From a virus (Duplodnaviria > Caudoviricetes), in IMG/VR virus record IMGVR_UViG_3300036668_000250, positions 1 to 61,290 of that record: a DNA stretch of 61,290 nt, one strand, 5' to 3'. A program made the position numbers and the translations under genes. How positions within the stretch are numbered: position 1 is the first letter of the stretch; the number at the start of each line of letters is the position of its first letter. Positions 2,649 through 49,926 of the stretch are shown in pieces. Below the pieces are notes generated by a model. The model was not told the origin of the DNA. It worked only from the letters and a program-made list of their open reading frames with translations, and ran no database searches.

Positions 2649-3563
2649 ATGCCACAAGAAATAGGTCAGTCTTATAAAAGCGTTATTCCCACTTTTGCGG
2701 ATGGCTCTTCAATTGAAGAAGCATTCTATATGTATCACTATGGAAACGCAAACTGGTCACCTGGACAATCCATTCCATCAAATAGTATTGAGGGAATCTT
2801 TTCTTCATTAGATTTAAGAATAACTGAAAACGAAAACTTCATAGAAAACCTAGGGGACACATATATAACAAGATCTCCTTCATCATCTTCTCGAAACACT
2901 ATTCAGGCTACCTCGTCAACCATTGTACCCCTTACTATAAGAGGGGCAGTTGGGCAAACAGCCAATTTGCAAGAATGGGTAGAAGATACAGGAAGCAGTC
3001 AAATAGTAAGAGCAAGAATATCTGCTAATGGATCGTTCTCTACCCTGGGGTATTTCTCAGTTGGTTCAATTAGCCCATCTCCATCGGTGGCTAACAGTAT
3101 TCAAATATCTTCCCCCGAACATAAAGGGGTGGTTGTCAGGTCCTCCTTATCTCAAACAGCCAACTTGCAAGAATGGCAAGACAGCAATGAGAACATTTTG
3201 TTGTCGGTAGACTCTGGTGGCTCTTTTGTTTACAACATACCTGTTGAAAATGTTGATACTAGCGTTCCAGAAAACGTTGTAATAAATCAATCAAAAGTTG
3301 GAAAAACAATAATTGTAACAAATCTTAGTGAAAGCAGTGTCTTTACTATAACGATACCTAGCAACTCCACTACTCCCATGTCTGTGGGTTCTCAAATAAA
3401 CTATATAAGTAAAGGTGTTCAAGGGATACAATTTTCTCCAGCATCGGGGGTAACTTTAAATTCTGAAAACGGATACAGAAGAGTAGACGGTGAATACTCA
3501 GCAGCAACATTGATTAAAGTAAGCACAAATGAATGGATTTTGCTGGGGGCATTGAGGCAATAA
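2649..3563 (+). CDS. Tail fibre-like protein, paralogue 2
   Basis: 304 aa; colinear with 1721-2623 (SIEEAFYMYHYG, NSIEG, two ANLQEW repeats, YSAATLIKV..WILLGAL). Confidence 0.65.
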   Translation: MPQEIGQSYKSVIPTFADGSSIEEAFYMYHYGNANWSPGQSIPSNSIEGIFSSLDLRITENENFIENLGDTYITRSPSSSSRNTIQATSSTIVPLTIRGAVGQTANLQEWVEDTGSSQIVRARISANGSFSTLGYFSVGSISPSPSVANSIQISSPEHKGVVVRSSLSQTANLQEWQDSNENILLSVDSGGSFVYNIPVENVDTSVPENVVINQSKVGKTIIVTNLSESSVFTITIPSNSTTPMSVGSQINYISKGVQGIQFSPASGVTLNSENGYRRVDGEYSAATLIKVSTNEWILLGALRQ

Positions 3564-4534
3564 TGCTTGGAACATATGAGAGTCAGGACGGATATTTTAT
3601 AACAATTGGTGGAAATTATGAATATTTTCAAGCAAATCATCAATTGAACTACGGATACTGTATTTTTACTTCTTCGGGAAGTTTGTCTGTAATAAGGAAA
3701 AGGCCAATACCAAATTGCTCTATATTAGTCGTTGGTGGGGGCGGCAGCGGTGGTGGCAACAACCAGTCTGCCTCAGGCGGCGGCGGCGGAGCAGGCGGTG
3801 GGGTTTCCTTATTCAACAATATAACCCTACTCCCTAAAACAACATACTCTGTCACGGTGGGTTCTGGAGGCTCTGGGTCAACTTTAAATGGGGGTAAGGG
3901 TGGAAACAGTTCATGGAATAGTCAATATAGCGCAGAGGGTGGAAACGGCGGCGGCGCGGGATACATAACTGGAACTTATGCAGGAGATCAATTTCCGGGA
4001 AGTGCTGGGGTTCGCGTCTCTGGCGGCGGATCAGGTGGATCTGGAGGCTACTACGCACCAGGAAATATATATTACCCAAGCCCTGGAATAAATGGAGGTT
4101 TTGGACAAACTGGAACATTAACCACAGGTATGACATCACCCGCTCAAGGGTCTGTTGATCAGCCAGTTCAAAGAGTTTTGGGGTATTTCGGAACTGGCGG
4201 CGGAGGGGGGGAGTTCTTGAATAGATGGGATGGTGGAATAGGATATTCAGGAGGAACGACCCCATGGTTTGTTGATCCAAGATACTTCCTTGCATATAGT
4301 GGGCCATATTTTGGATCTGGAGTGGGAAAGTTATTGACAACACCAGAGGGAGACTCTTCTTATTCAAACTTTAGTTATTATAATCCGGCGAGTTGGCCAA
4401 GTTTTTTTGGAACAAGTGAAAAAAGAGTGTTTTCTGCGGGAAACGGCGGCGGCGGAGCACGGGGAGTTTATACAGCATCCTTTTCGTCAACAGGTGGACA
4501 AAGTGGTATTGTTATACTAAGATATAGAATATAG
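3563..4534 (+). CDS. Glycine-rich tail fibre/adhesin-like protein
   Basis: ILVVGGGGSGG..GGGGGAGG..YSVTVGSGG..GQSGIVILRY, typical phage glycine-rich domain; start moved to ATG 3563 (TAATG overlap). Confidence 0.7.
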   Translation: MLGTYESQDGYFITIGGNYEYFQANHQLNYGYCIFTSSGSLSVIRKRPIPNCSILVVGGGGSGGGNNQSASGGGGGAGGGVSLFNNITLLPKTTYSVTVGSGGSGSTLNGGKGGNSSWNSQYSAEGGNGGGAGYITGTYAGDQFPGSAGVRVSGGGSGGSGGYYAPGNIYYPSPGINGGFGQTGTLTTGMTSPAQGSVDQPVQRVLGYFGTGGGGGEFLNRWDGGIGYSGGTTPWFVDPRYFLAYSGPYFGSGVGKLLTTPEGDSSYSNFSYYNPASWPSFFGTSEKRVFSAGNGGGGARGVYTASFSSTGGQSGIVILRYRI

Positions 4535-4542
4535 GAGTTAAG

Positions 4543-4842
4543 GTGTCTAATTTTGCAAAAGTAGACGATGGATTTGTTTCACAGATACTTGTGGTTCCAG
4601 AAGAGTATTCCCACAATGGAAGTTTTTATCTTTCAAGTCAACTTGGACTAGGAGGGGAGTGGATAAAGACTCCAAGAGACAACAGCACAGAGGCGACAAT
4701 AGGAGGGTCCTATTCTAAGGAAGAAGACGCCTTTATCCCTCCAAAACCCGAGGGCAACAAGTGGGAGTTAAACGATGAGTATCAATGGTCTTTGCCCGTA
4801 GTTGAAGCCCCCCTTATTTCGCCTGCCCCGCCATCAAGATAA
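4543..4842 (+). CDS. Small fibre-associated protein
   Basis: GTG after AGGAG; SNFAKV..ATIGGSY..DAFIPPKP..W.L pattern often found after glycine-rich fibre genes. Confidence 0.6.
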   Translation: MSNFAKVDDGFVSQILVVPEEYSHNGSFYLSSQLGLGGEWIKTPRDNSTEATIGGSYSKEEDAFIPPKPEGNKWELNDEYQWSLPVVEAPLISPAPPSR

Positions 4843-4863: not shown

Positions 4864-5406
4864 ATGTCTTCCGGGTCTACACCAAACTATTCTTTTCCTT
4901 ATCCAATCTTAACTGATCCTGTAAAGTTTACCGATGATATGGAAGACCTTGCAGTTTCAATCGACTCTAGGCTAATTAATCTTGTTACGGGGACTGGACA
5001 AGTTCCAGCAACAGCAGATCAAGAAAATAAATATTTATACTCAGATGGAACAAATGCATTCTGGAACTCAATTCCATCTTCCTACCTAGAGTCTGTCATT
5101 GTCTCCTCTAACTCATTAGAAACATTAGATTCGTTTAAAGTTGCCGAACATCGAAGCGCTGAGTACACAATACAAGCAGATCAGCCTGACGTTTCTAAAA
5201 AAACCTTGATGAAGGTTCTTGTTATTCACGATGACACTCAAGCCTATATAACATCATTTGGAATTATTGAAATTGGATCTTCAAGAATCCCCCTTGACGC
5301 TTCTGTTTCTATTAGTGGAGAAGACCTTTTGCTTCAGGTGCAGGTGTCGGATGCATCAACAAACAACGTTGAATTTGAAATAATAAGAACAGCATTGTCT
5401 GTGTAA
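4864..5406 (+). CDS. Putative virion protein
   Basis: 180 aa; N-terminal TPNYSFPYP..D..DLAVSID motif; C-terminal LDSF..RSAEYTIQ..VLVIHD beta domain. Confidence 0.55.
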   Translation: MSSGSTPNYSFPYPILTDPVKFTDDMEDLAVSIDSRLINLVTGTGQVPATADQENKYLYSDGTNAFWNSIPSSYLESVIVSSNSLETLDSFKVAEHRSAEYTIQADQPDVSKKTLMKVLVIHDDTQAYITSFGIIEIGSSRIPLDASVSISGEDLLLQVQVSDASTNNVEFEIIRTALSV

Positions 5407-5496
5407 AAACTTAATAATTTTTATTTTTGTTTCAATATAAAAGTTGATATACTAATGAATTACCAATAAAATCAAATAGGGATGGTGTTGTTTTTT

Positions 5497-7446
5497 ATGT
5501 CAATTATTGACAAAAACGGGTCTATTGTAGACCCTTACCGTAATTTTATTCATATTTCAAGATATAGCAGATGGCTAGAAGATAAAGGGCGCAGAGAAAC
5601 TTGGTCAGAAACAGTAGACAGATACATAGAGTTTATGAGGAATCATCTTCACAAAAACTTTAACTACAATAAAGATGACCCTAAGTTTGAAAAAGTCAGA
5701 GAGTATATTCTTAATCATCAAGTTATGCCGTCTATGAGGTCGCTAATGACTGCGGGTCCAGCACTAGATAGAGACCATGTATCCTCATACAATTGTTCCT
5801 TTTTGGCGGTAGACAGTCTAAGATCATTTGACGAAGCAATGTACGTCCTTATGAATGGTACGGGAGTAGGATTTAGCGTAGAGGAAAAGTATATTTCTCA
5901 ATTGCCTATTATTGCTGAAGAGTTCTATCCAACAGATACAACCATTGTTGTTGCAGATTCTAAACTTGGGTGGGCTAAAGCGTACAAAGAACTTATCAGC
6001 CTATTGGTCACAGGACAAATTCCCCAATGGGACATGTCTCAAGTTCGACCAGCAGGAGCAAGGTTAAAAACTTTCGGCGGTAGGGCGTCTGGTCCAGAGC
6101 CATTAAATGACCTGTTTAAGTTTACCGTAGAACAATTTAAAAATGCCTCAGGGCGCAGGCTAAAGCCCATTGAGGCCCATGACATCATGTGCAAGGTGGG
6201 GGAAGTGGTTGTTGTGGGAGGAGTAAGAAGATCCGCTCTTATATCACTATCCAACCTTGACGATTTCGAGATGGCTAAAGCAAAATCAGGTCAATGGTGG
6301 GAGTCAGAGCCGCAAAGAGCCTTGGCCAATAATAGTGCGGTATATAACATGAAGCCAAACACCGCTCAATTTCTCAGAGAATGGAGAAACCTGTATGAAT
6401 CAAAATCAGGTGAGCGTGGCATGTATAACATGGACTCTGTAAGGAAGCATGTTGATAAGTTTGGCAGAAGAGATTCTTCTAAAATTGCAGGAACCAACCC
6501 CTGTGGTGAAATATTGTTGCGATCAAATCAATTTTGCAACCTTACTGAAGTTGTCATTGAAGAAAAAGATGACTTTGACTCTCTTCAAGAAAAAATACAG
6601 ATTGCTACTATCCTGGGAACTTGGCAATCCACTCTAAGCAACTTTAAATACATTAGAAAAACATGGAAAGATAATACAGAGCAAGAAAGGCTATTGGGTG
6701 TATCTCTTACTGGAATTTTTGGCAACAAGTTAACGGGCACAATTCATAAAAATTTGCCTAGTATGCTTGATAGCCTTAGAGAATCTGCTGTGCAAGCAAA
6801 TGCTGTAGAGGCAGACACTCTAGGCATTGAGCATTCCGCCGCTGTCACCACAGTAAAGCCTAGCGGTACAGTTTCTCAGTTGACTGGTGTCTCCTCTGGT
6901 ATCCACCCTTGGTATTCGGAGCATTACATTAGGACTGTTCGTGCAGACAACAAGGACCCACTAACTCAATTTCTTAAAGATTTTGGTGTACCCAATGAAC
7001 CAGACGTTATGAAGCCAGATGCCACAACTGTTTTTTCTTTTCCCGTTAAGGCACCCAAGAACGCGGTGGTAACAAAAGACCTTTCTGCCATCGACCACCT
7101 TGAAATCTGGAAGGTATACAGAGAGCATTGGACAGAGCACAATCCTTCTGTTACGGTAAACATAAAAGAAGATGAGTGGATCGAAGTAGGGGCATGGGTT
7201 TACAAGAACTTTGACTCTATTGGAGGGGTTTCGTTTCTTCCAGCATCTGAGCATAGTTACAAGCAAGCGCCATATCAAGAAATAAACGAAAAAGAATACA
7301 AGGACCTTTTAGGTAAAATGCCTAAAAACATTCCCTGGCAATCCCTTCCACTCTATGAATTAGAAGATACAACTAGTGGATCTCAGGAATTATCTTGCAC
7401 AAGTGCCTTAGGGTGCGAGGTAGTAGATTTAGTCGAAACAGTATAA
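5497..7446 (+). CDS. nrdJ: Class II (adenosylcobalamin-dependent) ribonucleotide reductase
   Basis: PSMRSL, YNCSF, GTGVGF, VVVGGVRRSALI, TNPCGEI, TTVKPSGTVSQL motifs and C-terminal Cys pair; start could be 5482. Confidence 0.92.
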   Translation: MSIIDKNGSIVDPYRNFIHISRYSRWLEDKGRRETWSETVDRYIEFMRNHLHKNFNYNKDDPKFEKVREYILNHQVMPSMRSLMTAGPALDRDHVSSYNCSFLAVDSLRSFDEAMYVLMNGTGVGFSVEEKYISQLPIIAEEFYPTDTTIVVADSKLGWAKAYKELISLLVTGQIPQWDMSQVRPAGARLKTFGGRASGPEPLNDLFKFTVEQFKNASGRRLKPIEAHDIMCKVGEVVVVGGVRRSALISLSNLDDFEMAKAKSGQWWESEPQRALANNSAVYNMKPNTAQFLREWRNLYESKSGERGMYNMDSVRKHVDKFGRRDSSKIAGTNPCGEILLRSNQFCNLTEVVIEEKDDFDSLQEKIQIATILGTWQSTLSNFKYIRKTWKDNTEQERLLGVSLTGIFGNKLTGTIHKNLPSMLDSLRESAVQANAVEADTLGIEHSAAVTTVKPSGTVSQLTGVSSGIHPWYSEHYIRTVRADNKDPLTQFLKDFGVPNEPDVMKPDATTVFSFPVKAPKNAVVTKDLSAIDHLEIWKVYREHWTEHNPSVTVNIKEDEWIEVGAWVYKNFDSIGGVSFLPASEHSYKQAPYQEINEKEYKDLLGKMPKNIPWQSLPLYELEDTTSGSQELSCTSALGCEVVDLVETV

Positions 7447-45002: not shown

Positions 45003-46289
45003 GTGGAAAATCACAATTATCAAGCGTTGCACCTGCATACTGACATGGGGTCACTTATGGATGGGGTAGCCACGCCAGAAGAGTACGCCGACCGCGCATC
45101 AGAAATTAAGATGTCTGCTATAGCATGTACTGATCATGGAAGCCTTTCTGCTCACAGAAGGTTTTATCGAGCAGCAAACAGCAGGGGAATAAAGCCTATT
45201 CTAGGGGTAGAAGCATACATTACTGGAGATAGGTTTGATAAAAGAGATAAGTCTGAAAGAACAACTCCCCTAGACCTTGTTTACAACCACATAGTTATAT
45301 TGGCAAAAAATGATCAAGGGCTTGAGAACCTTAATCGTCTCAATGAAATAGCCTGGAATGAAGGTTTTTATAGAAAGCCAAGAATTGATTTTGAAGTCTT
45401 AGAGAAGTACCGTGAGGGTCTTATCGTTTCCTCTGCCTGCATGTCTGGGCTGCTTAATAAGGCGATTGAGGTTGATGACTACGCCGCAGCAAAGGCACAC
45501 CTTAATTGGTTTGGAGAAAGGTTTGGGGATGACTTTTATGTAGAGATAATGCCACACAATGTTAAGGGCATGAACAAGTCATTGATAGAGTTGGCAGATG
45601 CCAACGGTCACAAGATCATTGTCACTCCAGATTGTCACCATGCGACGGTAGATCAAAAAGTTATCCAAGAGATCATGTTAATCAACAACACTCATGCAAA
45701 GGTTCAGAAGGATACCTCTTACGAAAAGTCTAGGAAAATTGAAGACCCCATGAAAAGACTTGACTATCTTTATGGGGAAGGGCGAATGATGTCATTTAAT
45801 AAGTTTGACATTCACCTCCTTTCAGGTCAGGAAATGCACAAGGCAATGGGAGAAGACTCTCGAACAGATATGTTTGAAAACACTAATGAGATTGCCAATA
45901 AGGTAGAAGAGTATACGATGCATCGCAACCTTAACCTGTTGCCTGTGGAGCATAAGAATCCAGATGATCAGATCAGAAAGAACTGCTTTTCTTGGCTGAA
46001 GGACAAGGGGCTTGAGGAAAATGAAGAGTATGTAGGCAGACTTGAAGAAGAACTTGACGCTATTAAACAGAAAAGGTTTGCGTCATACTTTATTGTTGTT
46101 CAGAACATGATTAACTGGGCAAAGAAAAATGACATCATGGTTGGCCCAGGGAGAGGTAGTTCTGCTGGATCTTTGGTTTGCTATGCTTTAGGCATCACCG
46201 ACATTGACCCCATTAAGCATGGTTTGCTATTTTTTAGATTTATTGATGGTGGTTCTGCTCAATACGATCCAAAGTTTAATGTGATATAA
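45003..46289 (+). CDS. dnaE: DNA polymerase III alpha, N-terminal part (PHP domain to GRGS motif)
   Basis: [65 protein letters not shown], then stop. Confidence 0.92.
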
Positions 46290-46296
46290 TTTAAAC

Positions 46297-47085
46297 ATGG
46301 GTATAGATACTGATGTTCAAAAACAAATAAAAAGTTTGTACTTAAGTGGAAACTCAGGACATAAAATTTCTCAAATAACTGGTATCTCTAGTGGAACGGT
46401 GTACAATTATCTAAAACTATTAGGCATAACTAGGTCCAATAAAATAAACTCCAGAAAATATTCTTTAAATCATGAGTATTTTTCAGAAATAGATTTAGAG
46501 CATAAAGCCTACTGGCTAGGATTTATTCAAGCCGACGGATATCTTCTGACTGGCACTCCCGGAATTGGAATTGCACTAGCAGAGGTGGACAGGGGGCATC
46601 TAGAGAAATTTAAAAACAGTATTGAGGCCGATTATCCAATAAAAACATATAGGGGGAATGGGTATTCTCAAAACGATTATGTCAGGATAATAGTTAAAAG
46701 TGAAAAAATGTGGAACGATTTAAACAATCTGGGAGTTACTCCCCAAAAAACAAAAACAACGCTTCCCATAAAAGTAGATAAAGGACTTGAGCGGCATTAT
46801 ATTCGTGGTTTAATGGATGGGGACGGCTCAATAAAAATAAGTAAAAGTTCAAAGGCTGGGTATCGTGGAGACTTTGTTTCTGCCACTCCAGAAATGGCTA
46901 CATATATTGCAGACGCCCTTGGAAAGGGTGCAGTAAGATTTGATAAAAACAAAAATGTTTGGTACAGTGAATTTACTCTAACAATAAAGAATTTGGACTA
47001 TTTATATGACGAAGCAACTGTCTATCTTTCAAGGAAACATGCAAGAGCGGTTCTCGGAAGATCTAGAATTTCAAAAGTTAGTTAA
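46297..47085 (+). mobile_element. Free-standing LAGLIDADG homing endonuclease with N-terminal HTH, inserted in dnaE
   Basis: AYWLGFIQADG and YIRGLMDGDG motifs; own -10 TGATATAAT 46282-46290. Confidence 0.88.
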
Positions 47086-49321
47086 GTTAGTAGAAGAGTC
47101 AAAAAAAGATTTTGATATATCTTGGGCAAGTGACGAACTTTACGCTATCGGCAGACTAGGTATGTCTAATTATTTTTTGGAACTTCTTGGGAAAAGAGTA
47201 GACAATCCAAATCATTCGACGGTAGCCTATGCAATTGGAGTTACTGGTGACCGACCTACATCCTATCCCGTAGGTCTTGTTGTAGACCGTGGAAGAGACG
47301 ACGCTGCCGATATTGACTCAGACATAATGGATAGCCGACGCGAGGAGGTAAAGGGCTACCTGGAGTCTCAATATAAGCACGTTGCATCCATTGCCACTTT
47401 CCTTCAATTTAAGGATAAGGGTGTTGTTCGAGATGTGGCAAGATGCTTTAACATTCCTCTAGCAGATGTTAATCGTGTGCTAAAAACGGTTGATACATGG
47501 GAAGAGTTTACTACTTCTAAAAATACATTTTGGTTTAGAGAAAAGTATCCAGAGGTGGAAGTTTATGGAGATCAGTTAAGGGGTAGAGTAAGAGCAACAG
47601 GTGTCCACGCAGCAGGTGTTGTCACCTCAAAAATTCCCATTAGCAAGGTTGCCCCCATGGAAACTAGAAGTGTGACTGGTAGCACCAGCAGACTTCCTGT
47701 GGTTGCAATAGACATGGACGAAGCAGCAGACATTGGCCTAATTAAGATTGATGCTCTGGGACTAAAGACTCTCACTGTGATTAGCGATACTCTCAAGGTT
47801 GTTAAAGATAGACACGGGAAGAAGATAGACCTGCATTCGATAAACATGGAAGATCCAAACGTGTACTCCATGCTTTCCGATGGCCATACAAAGGGTGTGT
47901 TTCAGTGTTCTGCTGCCCCATACACAAGCCTATTGATAAAAATGGGGGTACGCAAGTTTGATGAACTTGTAGCGTCCAACGCTCTTGTTCGTCCAGGTGC
48001 TATGAACACCATTGGAAAAGAATACATATCCAGAAAGTATGGTAAAAGTAATGTGGTGTATTCAACCCCGATTATGAAAAACTTTACAGAAGAAACCTAC
48101 GGAACAATTTTGTATCAAGAGCAGGTTATGCTTGCCTGCATAAATGTTGGTGGCATGACTATGGGCGAAGCAAATAAGGTTAGAAAGATTATTGGCAAAA
48201 AGAAAGACGCCCAAGAGTTCGATCAATTTAAAGAGTTGTTTATTCGTAATGCTACTGCAAAAATAGGCAAGAAAGATGCTGAAAAAATGTGGCATGATTT
48301 TGAGGCACACGCGGGGTACTCTTTCAACAAGAGCCACGCTGTAGCATACTCAACCCTGTCTTACTGGACTGCATGGCTTAAGTATTACTACCCTATTGAA
48401 TTTGTCTTTTCTCTACTTAAAAATGAAAAGGACAAAGACATGCGTACAGAATATCTTATTGAGGCAAAAAGAATGGGCATACCAATTAAATTGCCACATA
48501 TTAATGATTCAGGCGCAGACTTTAAGATTGAAGGAAAGGGTATCCGATTTGGGCTTTCTTCAATTAAATTTATATCCGATACCATTGCTAAAAGATACAT
48601 TGAAAGCAGACCATTTAAGAGTCTAGAAGAGGTCAAGGGGTTCTCGTTTACCAAGGGTAGCGGAGTAAACAGTAGAGCGCTCAATGCCATGAACCTAATT
48701 GGCGCTCTAACCTTTCCAGACAATCCCATAGATGAAAAACAAGTTAAAGAAAACATGTACGAGTACCTAAATTTGCCAGAGTTTGTAACTCAGATTCCCC
48801 AGCACTACCATGCCCACATATCAACCGTTGAAGACTTTGACGAAAAGTCTGCTTTAATTTTGATGGGCATCGCTAGGGGGATAAAAAGAGGCAAGGGCTG
48901 GAGCAGAGTTGACATACTAGACTCTACTGGTGCTGTAGGAGTTTTTGATGATGAAGACACCTCCTTGGAACCAGGAAGGACGTACATCTTCTTAATTGGG
49001 TCTAATAGAATCCTAGAAGCAGTTCCTGTAGAAGATGTGGGTAAAAGTGATTCAGCGCTGGTACGGGCACTAAATTATAAGCAAGTACCATTCGGTGAAA
49101 AAGAGTATTTGGTTGTCAAAATCGCTCCACGCATAACTAAATCTGGGTCAAGAATGGCTACGCTGATATTAATGACTCACGAGCGAGAATTTATTTCATG
49201 CATTGTGTTTCCTAGCAAATTCTCACAAATGTATGTTGGGTTACAGGAAGGATCGGCATATAAGATTGACTATAGCATTAATAAGGACGATGACCTTATT
49301 TTCCAAGATATTGTGCAATGA
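47006..49321 (+). CDS. dnaE: DNA polymerase III alpha, C-terminal part (catalytic Asp, fingers, HhH, OB)
   Basis: DIDSD, GVHAAGVV, KIDALGL, GVFQ, RPG, YQEQVM, YSFNKSHA, IRFGLSSIK; start 47006 or 47039 (AAGGA before 47039). Confidence 0.92.
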   Translation: MTKQLSIFQGNMQERFSEDLEFQKLVKLVEESKKDFDISWASDELYAIGRLGMSNYFLELLGKRVDNPNHSTVAYAIGVTGDRPTSYPVGLVVDRGRDDAADIDSDIMDSRREEVKGYLESQYKHVASIATFLQFKDKGVVRDVARCFNIPLADVNRVLKTVDTWEEFTTSKNTFWFREKYPEVEVYGDQLRGRVRATGVHAAGVVTSKIPISKVAPMETRSVTGSTSRLPVVAIDMDEAADIGLIKIDALGLKTLTVISDTLKVVKDRHGKKIDLHSINMEDPNVYSMLSDGHTKGVFQCSAAPYTSLLIKMGVRKFDELVASNALVRPGAMNTIGKEYISRKYGKSNVVYSTPIMKNFTEETYGTILYQEQVMLACINVGGMTMGEANKVRKIIGKKKDAQEFDQFKELFIRNATAKIGKKDAEKMWHDFEAHAGYSFNKSHAVAYSTLSYWTAWLKYYYPIEFVFSLLKNEKDKDMRTEYLIEAKRMGIPIKLPHINDSGADFKIEGKGIRFGLSSIKFISDTIAKRYIESRPFKSLEEVKGFSFTKGSGVNSRALNAMNLIGALTFPDNPIDEKQVKENMYEYLNLPEFVTQIPQHYHAHISTVEDFDEKSALILMGIARGIKRGKGWSRVDILDSTGAVGVFDDEDTSLEPGRTYIFLIGSNRILEAVPVEDVGKSDSALVRALNYKQVPFGEKEYLVVKIAPRITKSGSRMATLILMTHEREFISCIVFPSKFSQMYVGLQEGSAYKIDYSINKDDDLIFQDIVQ

Positions 49322-49365
49322 CAAACGCTAAAATAATAAAAAACGTTTGTGATATAATTAAAGAC

Positions 49366-49926
49366 ATGAGAACTGCAAAAGATATAGTGGTTGGAGATAT
49401 TGTTGGTACAATATTAATAACTAAAAAACAAATTGAGCCATATTATTCTAAGACTAGCATGATGTTCTATGGCATATGTGAAACATGCAATATTGAAAGA
49501 AAGTTATCTTCATCACATGTTGGAGTAATTTTAAGGGGACGAGGTGGTGGCTGCCATTGTAGTAGAAGGAGATCGGGAACAGATACAGAGTATAAGTGGA
49601 GATATCAAAGTTATGCTCAGGCCGCAAAAAAAAGAAATCTTGAGTGGGAACTAAGTTACGAGCAGTTTCTTGACGTAACTCAGCAAAATTGTTATTATTG
49701 TGGCATACAACCAGAAATGCGTCCATCTCACCACAAGAGATGGGGCTTTAAGTTCCCCATGTCCGGAATAGATAGAGTTGACTCAGCAAAGGGATATGTG
49801 GAAGAAAATATAGTGCCATGCTGCTCTCACTGCAATCAAGCAAAATGGGACCACAGCACCGAAGAATTTTTAGACTGGGTAAAAAGAATTTATACTAATC
49901 AATTTCAGGAGGTTGTTAATGCTTAA
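49366..49926 (+). mobile_element. Free-standing HNH homing endonuclease
   Basis: CYYCG..GIDRVDSAKGY..NIVPCCSHCNQAK; ATG 49366 is 7 nt after TGATATAAT (alternative start 49318). Confidence 0.8.

Follow-up and report, generated by a model that had tools for sequence, protein, structure and literature searches.

Replicative polymerases are not expected to survive a break between their nucleotide-binding loop and their catalytic aspartates, yet a family of uncultured phages appears to do just that. How such a break is borne is the question raised by the dnaE region of IMGVR_UViG_3300036668_000250, a complete IMG/VR entry of 61,290 bases (completeness estimate ~57%) that was analyzed over its full length and is referred to here as the window; the sequencing runs that contain it are labeled as a salt-lake metagenome. 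In the window, the gene for the alpha subunit of DNA polymerase III (Pol III alpha) is divided between two genes on the plus strand, the strand of all dnaE features described below. The upstream gene, dnaE-N (45003-46289; 428 amino acids), encodes the PHP domain and the first part of the palm, and the downstream gene, dnaE-C (47006-49321), encodes an N-terminal extension termed here the head, followed by the remaining palm with its catalytic aspartates, the thumb, the fingers, a helix-hairpin-helix (HhH) domain and the C-terminal part. Between them lies an open reading frame (ORF) of 262 amino acids (46297-47085) for a free-standing LAGLIDADG homing endonuclease with an N-terminal helix-turn-helix. 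The three ORFs occupy three different frames, and the endonuclease ORF overlaps dnaE-C by 80 nucleotides (nt). A preliminary description of the region had proposed that DnaE-C opens with a degenerate copy of the end of DnaE-N, devoid of the GRGS loop, and that this copy was kept as a folding or docking module that lets the split enzyme assemble, as a way of tolerating the endonuclease without splicing. The answer that we favor, with moderate confidence, is a two-gene dnaE allele in which a short tail on DnaE-N and the head on DnaE-C would help the halves to work together, and which the endonuclease would have spread.

A duplicated palm segment at the start of DnaE-C

The Pol III alpha domain set of the window is complete but divided, with PHP and GPGRGS on DnaE-N and DIDSD, the finger domain and HHH_6 on DnaE-C, and no further dnaE matches occur elsewhere in the 61,290-base record. 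Pfam assigns to DnaE-N a PHP domain (2e-40, residues 9-185) and DNA_pol3_alpha (1e-32, residues 338-415, profile positions 18-95), and to DnaE-C positions 70-260 of the same DNA_pol3_alpha profile, the finger domain and HHH_6; profile positions 70-95 are present twice, at the end of DnaE-N and again at the start of DnaE-C. The first occurrence belongs to segment A (46035-46247, DnaE-N residues 345-415), which ends in FFRFID, matches PF07733 on its own at 4e-33, and includes the GPGRGS loop (46143-46160, residues 381-386) that is invariant across the alignment examined. The second, segment A' (47120-47293, DnaE-C residues 39-96), is the degenerate duplicate WASDELYAIGRLGMSNYFLELLGKRVDNPNHSTVAYAIGVTGDRPTSYPVGLVVDRG, from which the loop is absent. 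As the preliminary description had it, the copy leads straight into the catalytic aspartate strand, DAADIDSD (47300-47323), in which Ala-Ala (47303-47308) stands in place of the x-Pro of other alleles. The first part of the head (47006-47119, residues 1-38) precedes segment A' and consists of a start region within the endonuclease ORF (47006-47085) and a variable linker.

Comparison with uninterrupted genes shows where the add-ons lie. Among 47 related IMG/VR loci (61-76% identity), five end before the junction, and dnaE is a single ORF in 42/42 of those that reach it. These unsplit relatives read FFRFID-IDRDDWPDIDSD across the junction; they have neither the 96-residue head nor a counterpart of the 13-residue tail with which DnaE-N ends (residues 416-428 and the stop codon, 46248-46289), and 26 of their codons (42 loci) are matched by both halves of the window.

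The statistical significance of segment A' taken alone is moderate to good. Pairwise BLASTP is weak (E 0.037 over 17 residues), and Pfam returns no match for DnaE-C residues 1-96 alone. A hidden Markov model (HMM) of segment A, built from 32 sequences, scores the head at 5.9 bits (E 8.5e-4), a score reached by 3/2000 shuffles, and a profile-profile comparison by hhalign, with three heads on one side and 16 DnaE-N segments on the other, returns a probability of 89% and an E-value of 2.2e-6 over head residues 39-88; with 12 heads, the corresponding values are 94% and 9.4e-8. In one relative (L310), the Pfam alignment of the head begins as early as profile position 25. In a phmmer search against PDB, DnaE-C residues 70-96 (HSTVAYAIGVTGDRPTSYPVGLVVDR) line up with Thermus Pol III alpha starting at its residue 429, where their counterpart is the helix and turn directly before the catalytic DxD. 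A word-based protein search with head residues 1-100 recovered the self-match alone, which marks a limit of sensitivity, since the HMM scan described below found relatives, and an ESM Atlas look-up placed the head among viral DNA_pol3_alpha clusters at scores (0.90-0.91) that lie inside the chance range of the tool.

The two copies have diverged far. Segment A' is 13 alignment columns shorter than segment A, with LLGKRVDNPNH taking the place of a 12-residue stretch of DnaE-N, and at the DNA level they share only 17 nt at 88% identity, so recombination between them is unlikely to delete the insert. The alignment that had been drawn by eye is thus borne out by the doubled Pfam positions, by phmmer and by significant profile similarity in both hhalign comparisons; the description of the copy as shorter, strongly diverged and lacking GRGS (0/26 heads) was likewise correct. 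By these profile comparisons, DnaE-C residues 39-96 are a diverged, ancient duplicate of DnaE-N residues ~345-415 without GRGS.

Conservation of the duplicate

Is the head a relic of the splitting event, in which only a frame and start signals matter and the sequence is otherwise free? Some of its properties would fit. In-frame starts before DIDSD occur only at residues 1, 12, 53 and 58, so some leader must be translated in any case. Residues 22-41 are poorly conserved: mean identity across the wide family is 0.17 for linker residues 22-39, and between the window and L134, a second split allele, nonsynonymous (dN) and synonymous (dS) divergence are about equal over residues 28-41, as in free drift. 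Pfam, moreover, does not recognize the head by itself. Past the linker, however, the evidence runs the other way. Over 16 head-bearing DnaE-C proteins, mean pairwise identity in segment A' (residues 40-88) is 0.41, against 0.37 in the palm and 0.39 in the fingers, with 0.19 in the C-terminal part. Six residues (W40, E44, S71, A74, P84, P88) are invariant in 12 diverse heads, and the head consensus reads W[LV].DEL.AI...L...FL.L..SGKKY.N..NS[ST]VAY.LGITD..P. Divergence is concentrated in third codon positions: the window and L134 are 67% identical in amino acids over residues 42-96, with differences of 0.25/0.24/0.62 at the three codon positions, a dN of 0.30 and a saturated dS, and their core residues 97-300 are 71% identical with differences of 0.29/0.16/0.57. 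The head motif is also retained where the endonuclease gene has been lost or was never present. Because GRGS is found in 26/26 split N fragments and in 0/26 heads, both copies are maintained with their labor divided. Conservation of this kind argues that segment A' is translated and held by selection and is not a neutral relic; the relic reading is one that we consider quite improbable.

The same pattern bears on where DnaE-C begins. Candidate starts are M1 (ATG 47006, giving 771 amino acids), which is conserved in the split alleles L134 and L050, and residue 12 (ATG 47039, giving 760 amino acids), the start of the public gene call. By the preliminary description, a start downstream of the duplicate would have counted against it; conservation from W40 onward speaks against initiation at M53 or L58, and we regard both as ruled out.

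Two-gene dnaE alleles form a wide family

The arrangement is not peculiar to the window. A full HMMER scan with DnaE-C over 1.84 billion cluster representatives returned 24,412 matches, of which the best 146 (representatives of 50%-identity clusters) were examined. Fifteen of these 146 are head-bearing DnaE-C proteins without RGS, ~760-1100 amino acids long and 35-60% identical to that of the window, and none of the 104 long representatives is missing RGS, apart from those with intein insertions or variant loops. A targeted search showed short DnaE-N proteins to be numerous at 409-440 amino acids, and 20/20 fetched N fragments bear a terminal tail that fits either GG.A.Y[DN]P.F[NS]V[ILV] or GG.[AS].W[DN].FSGF. 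From an alignment of the head only we arrived at 17 IMG/VR loci, three of which are ordinary unsplit genes and 14 of which, several of them near-duplicates, are head-bearing. The search of metagenomes for the same architecture, as the preliminary description had suggested, was thus productive, and by its domain layout the window is a member of a widespread two-gene dnaE family with a duplicated, GRGS-less piece of palm.

What occupies the junction differs among the 14 head-bearing loci. A LAGLIDADG gene is present in three (the window's contig, L299/L300) and an HNH gene in four (L302/L303, L304, L308; confirmed by Pfam for L302, L308 and the contig of L304), whereas six have no gene there (L301, L305, L306/L307/L309, L310), with N and C ORFs that are adjacent or overlap by up to 58 nt, and in the remaining one, L311 (IMGVR_UViG_3300002837_000112, locus 3300-3720), the two are fused into a single ORF. 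In L134, the endonuclease gene is reduced to its last 58 codons, yet the tail, the head and the split are all retained, and the endonuclease-free allele L139 keeps the tail motif (EIQYDPKF). The split architecture is independent of any one endonuclease. Because the same tail and head recur beside HNH genes, beside no gene, beside a decayed gene and within a fused chain, the duplicate is no by-product of this endonuclease, and the split allele with its add-ons looks like the lasting unit in which endonuclease genes are lodgers. The original proposal that an old duplication of the insertion-site flank had been kept therefore stands insofar as the duplicate is old, translated and selected, and falls insofar as it tied the duplicate to the insertion of the endonuclease now present. 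Only tentatively would we go further and regard tail and head as a portable split-tolerance module, derived from an internal duplication of the palm and carried by at least two unrelated endonuclease families.

The fused locus L311 displays all the parts in one chain: segment A with GPARGS, a tail-like SDYDWTF, a 28-residue linker, segment A' and PDIDVD. Pfam recognizes two DNA_pol3_alpha stretches in it, and its own A matches its own A' by BLASTP at E 1e-4. With tail and head in the same ORF, L311 indicates that a single folded protein can accommodate both next to each other; the fused form is either ancestral, re-fused or the product of an assembly error that shifted the frame. Its SDYDWTF also gave rise to the idea that the tail might be a decayed duplicate of the catalytic strand PDIDxDF. 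Tests with a position-specific scoring matrix were not significant (3323/20000 permutations at fixed register; 687/5000 and 894/5000 with register shifts), and the idea is no more than speculation.

Several further arrangements deserve mention. L052 and L053 (reverse strand) belong to a distant dnaE lineage with a related endonuclease gene in antisense orientation; their DnaE-C opens with another GRGS-less pseudo-palm (…RLEWEKQEIISQNKENYFLDMV…NENNLLVCWLLEIV…), and no DnaE-N is present upstream inside the L053 locus. Head-bearing DnaE-C proteins P0122, P0129 and P0148 and the C ORF of L301 contain an intein between FNK and SH of the fingers (Intein_splicing 5.6e-12 in L301), so the same gene has been struck by several kinds of mobile element. 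In P0196, P0198, P0203, P0215 and P0245, DnaE reads VHNS and then AAGSLVAY just ahead of the palm helix, which suggests inteins inside the GRGS loop itself. In P0184, P0221 and P0255, DnaE apparently begins at an intact GPGRGS palm segment without PHP, and these may be partial gene calls or a separate natural break upstream of the segment.

No detectable splicing element

Could the endonuclease gene instead reside in a spliced group I intron, such that FFRFID is joined to RGRDDAADIDSD and the head is untranslated intron RNA? Related LAGLIDADG genes do occur in true group I introns of dnaE in other phages, 6-8 codons downstream, and joining FFRFID to RGRDD would give the exact spacing of the unsplit relatives. 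The Rfam model RF00028, however, finds no group I intron in window positions 45800-47700 (E<=10), in L134 (E<=10) or in L050 (E<=1), and it does detect introns beside related endonuclease genes in eight other dnaE loci. In all lineages, the 205 nt downstream of the endonuclease stop are an open frame that runs into the catalytic strand, where exon 2 would lie, and this frame shows protein-type codon conservation and homology to DnaE. In endonuclease-free alleles, finally, the N and C ORFs overlap, leaving no space for an intron. We regard such an intron as a very remote prospect.

Slimmer still, and in our view barely credible, is the idea that a split intein, long defunct, left tail and head behind as remnants whose one remaining task is to clasp the halves together. 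Pfam detects no intein family on either half, assigning only PHP and DNA_pol3_alpha to DnaE-N and none to the head. The tail is 13 residues long, starts with GGSAQ and has neither a Cys/Ser start nor HINT blocks; the head ends with VVDRG before RDDAAD, rather than with His-Asn followed by Cys, Ser or Thr, so that the residues of an intein nucleophile and C-junction are lacking. The conserved part of the head is, in addition, homologous to the DnaE palm, and a low-confidence model predicts helices there. In the RF00028 and Pfam searches, then, the dnaE of the window gives no sign of RNA or protein splicing, consistent with the splicing-free arrangement that had been proposed for it.

Mobility of the endonuclease gene

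If the split does not depend on a particular endonuclease, what does the LAGLIDADG gene contribute? Its product matches LAGLIDADG_3 (PF14528) at 26.7 bits, against a cut-off of 22.5 (E 6.7e-6), with weak helix-turn-helix matches, and 281 homologues were found. Among relatives at 30-44% identity, dnaE lies beside or around the gene in 33/80 IMG/VR loci. In eight loci (L054, L055, L057, L064, L079, L080, L089, L119), related LAGLIDADG genes are housed in group I introns of dnaE, which score 55-86 bits with RF00028 (at the gathering score in L054, L055, L057, L064, L079 and L119, in E-value mode in L080 and L089); the ribozyme follows directly after the endonuclease ORF, exon 1 ends with PD, and exon 2 resumes with IDxD. 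These eight introns are found in the dnaE of very diverse phages, at ~4220-4710 of each locus, and L057 has a second intron at 5258-5525.

D-A-A-D-I-D is found in 3/3 LAGLIDADG-type split alleles (window, L134, L050), and x-P-D-I-D in all other alleles compared, namely four unsplit relatives, the HNH-type L218 and the endonuclease-free L139. From this shared motif, and from the position of the intron-borne relatives between PD and ID, we infer a cutting site, its protection by Ala-Ala and co-copying by repair: the LAGLIDADG enzyme would cut unsplit dnaE near the codons for PD and ID, and repair from a split allele would copy the tail, the endonuclease gene, the head and the protective Ala-Ala together, converting a one-gene into a two-gene allele.

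The distribution of the split alleles is consistent with such transfer. Trees of the N and C parts comprised 28 rows, made up of 24 of the 47 relatives, BillNye as outgroup and the three split alleles, with the frameshifted L047 dropped. The three LAGLIDADG-type split alleles do not form one clade, and at least three gains or losses are needed to explain them: the window falls inside a clade of unsplit relatives (98/95), L134 is sister to the unsplit L040 (100/99), and L050 branches deep. With split alleles scattered in this way among unsplit relatives in the window's clade, the tail, the endonuclease gene and the head probably travel as one. The flanks turn host-like right at the junction, the last 40 alignment columns of segment A being 98% identical to the unsplit L002 and the first 40 columns past the junction already 87% identical to the nearest unsplit relative. 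Near-identical copies of the window (L001, L132, L133) show zero variation across 46249-47293 and hence provide no population signal. We regard the LAGLIDADG gene as a mobile passenger at the junction and the probable driver of spread. A separate feature of the C-part tree is that split alleles have long terminal branches (window 0.43, L134 0.37, median 0.066), and the polymerase may evolve faster after the split.

How the two halves may work together

This two-gene allele is broken within the catalytic palm, so that the nucleotide-binding GRGS loop belongs to DnaE-N and the DxD strand to DnaE-C. We propose that the halves are translated separately, DnaE-C from either of its two candidate ATGs, both of which fall within the last part of the endonuclease gene, and that they would assemble non-covalently into one active site to which DnaE-N gives a strand, the GRGS loop and a helix, and DnaE-C the aspartates. 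Tail and head would make up an additional sub-domain by which the halves are held or folded together, and the chain break would then fall within this addition rather than in the catalytic core itself. A role of the duplicate in assembly is, in our assessment, the reading that the comparisons best support.

Alternatively, the head may have been selected for a task other than assembly, such as binding a replisome protein or DNA, or acting as a regulatory pseudo half-site, while the halves join through ordinary palm surfaces. It is conserved as strongly as the catalytic core; a conserved loop of its own, S-G-K-K-Y-x-N-x-x-N-S, with basic residues, stands at the position of G-P-G-R-G-S and replaces it; and the fused L311 retains the head though it has no fragments that need assembling. 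In phage Aeh1, whose split ribonucleotide reductase (RNR) is discussed below, the tails at the break are dispensable for heterodimer formation and needed only for higher-order assembly (PMC3045599). Against a task of this sort, head and tail are confined to split alleles save for the one fused ORF and are absent in all 42 unsplit relatives that reach the junction, and RGS is retained by the 104 long representatives, with the exceptions noted above. So tight a tie between the add-ons and the break argues for a role in tolerating it, and a purpose unrelated to assembly seems to us unlikely.

Several points nonetheless weigh against a tail and head that hold the halves together, or against their spread by the endonuclease. 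An AlphaFold model of DnaE-C residues 1-430 (20-row alignment) is of low confidence, with a mean predicted local distance difference test (pLDDT) score of 50.6, and lends no usable support to assembly; a prediction of the complex between DnaE-N and head residues 1-96 scored 0.00 and speaks neither for nor against assembly. If the DnaE-N helices sit normally by GRGS, there is no evident place for the duplicate helices to pack. The charges of tail and head (net 0, and -2/-1) do not complement one another, unlike those of the Aeh1 tails. Both the separate translation of the halves and the lack of splicing are deduced from the DNA sequence, and among the intron-like loci scanned with RF00028 a group I intron was missed in four (L072, L074, L075, L087), which means that a blank result with this model is not proof of absence. 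The fused form, known from a single contig, L311, could be a frameshift error. As to mobility, the C-part tree comes from a quick search only and uses 24 of the 47 relatives, and the non-monophyly of the split alleles could also have arisen by recombination of the flanks with unsplit relatives, not by homing.

The surrounding locus

The three-ORF dnaE region is part of a replication module, in which it lies between a primase gene and a RecA-like gene. Its split layout is contiguous in a contig of a separate sequencing run (46198-49400, 3 differences), and no joint without the endonuclease gene was seen in the DNA contigs that cover the junction. None of the 12 sequencing runs that contain the window is listed as RNA. 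An extended -10-like sequence, TGATATAAT (46282-46290, plus strand), spans the dnaE-N stop 6 nt upstream of the endonuclease ATG, and this 9-mer recurs in L050 at equal distance from the endonuclease ATG; it may be a promoter for a nearly leaderless endonuclease mRNA. In a general promoter scan, sites were no more numerous than in shuffles, and the promoter and terminator scan revealed nothing above chance; the RNA fold at the dnaE-N/endonuclease junction was likewise within chance (z 0.24). Downstream, an ORF of 202 amino acids (49318-49926) overlaps the dnaE-C stop by 4 nt and bears a C-terminal motif of the CxxC...H type (…VPCCSHCNQAKWDHS). Pfam has no match for this ORF at E<=0.001, and L134 has no ORF in its place; it is possibly a second free-standing endonuclease gene.

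Implications and comparison with known systems

If the proposed explanation is true, these alleles would constitute a second and far broader example of the principle seen in the Aeh1 tails, and would indicate that add-ons can arise by duplication of a flank followed by division of labor. Endonuclease genes could then spread a split-gene architecture through a phage population and, besides introns and inteins, would have a third widespread route by which a selfish endonuclease neutralizes its own insertion. The allele would also be a case of natural fragment complementation by overlapping fragments, and it offers a natural template for split-polymerase engineering. For annotation, the consequence is that a DnaE-C that opens with a GRGS-less pseudo-palm is not to be taken for a truncated gene.

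The closest known case is nrdA-a/mobE/nrdA-b of phage Aeh1, in which the split RNR cannot do without tails that it gained along with mobE; its authors predicted that such tails would be widespread yet hard to find (PMC3045599). The two systems agree in several respects. In each, a free-standing homing endonuclease gene divides an essential enzyme of nucleotide metabolism or replication within its active site, the ORF of the endonuclease runs into the beginning of the second half, C-terminal and N-terminal tails that are absent in unsplit homologues flank the break, and a composite active site would form without RNA or protein splicing (in dnaE as judged from sequence). They differ in that the N-terminal add-on of dnaE is a degenerate duplicate of its own flank (~55 residues), whereas that of Aeh1 is unique sequence, and in that the dnaE add-ons lack the charge complementarity of the Aeh1 tails. 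Aeh1 is described, moreover, as a single case, whereas the dnaE layout recurs across many diverged lineages, accompanied by either of two endonuclease families or by no endonuclease gene and, in one instance, fused.

A replicative polymerase in two pieces is also known from gene 43 of Aeromonas phages 25 and 44RR, where PolB is split into 43A and 43B with an endonuclease (seg) at the junction or not, and a review raises the idea that the endonuclease entered only after the gene had been split (Edgell et al. 2010, PMC2988022). The endonuclease-free dnaE alleles suggest that the same happened here. The polymerase concerned is Pol III alpha rather than PolB, and the accessible text of the review does not mention a duplicated flank for gene 43. 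In the fractured genes with split inteins, three dnaE loci among them, a phage-like dnaE is similarly halved around an endonuclease gene that extends at its 3' end into the beginning of the downstream gene, and the stop and start signals were proposed to come from the invading element (Dassa et al. 2009, PMC2677866). Protein trans-splicing rejoins those halves, unlike the halves described here, which have neither intein blocks nor catalytic residues of inteins. Cyanobacterial dnaE-n/dnaE-c likewise produces Pol III alpha from two genes, with the difference that these occupy separate loci, are broken at another point and yield products that are rejoined covalently by trans-splicing (PMC2677866). 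The group I introns of dnaE (L054 and others) share with the window a related endonuclease family (30-40% identity) and target codons around the catalytic PD and IDxD; in them a ribozyme follows the ORF and exon 1 ends at the insertion site, whereas the window has coding sequence and no detectable ribozyme. A full-text literature search, whose coverage excludes subscription journals, returned no account of a duplicated flank at a split dnaE. From the Aeh1 system in particular, the dnaE case is set apart by an add-on derived from the host gene itself, present in many lineages and common to two endonuclease families.

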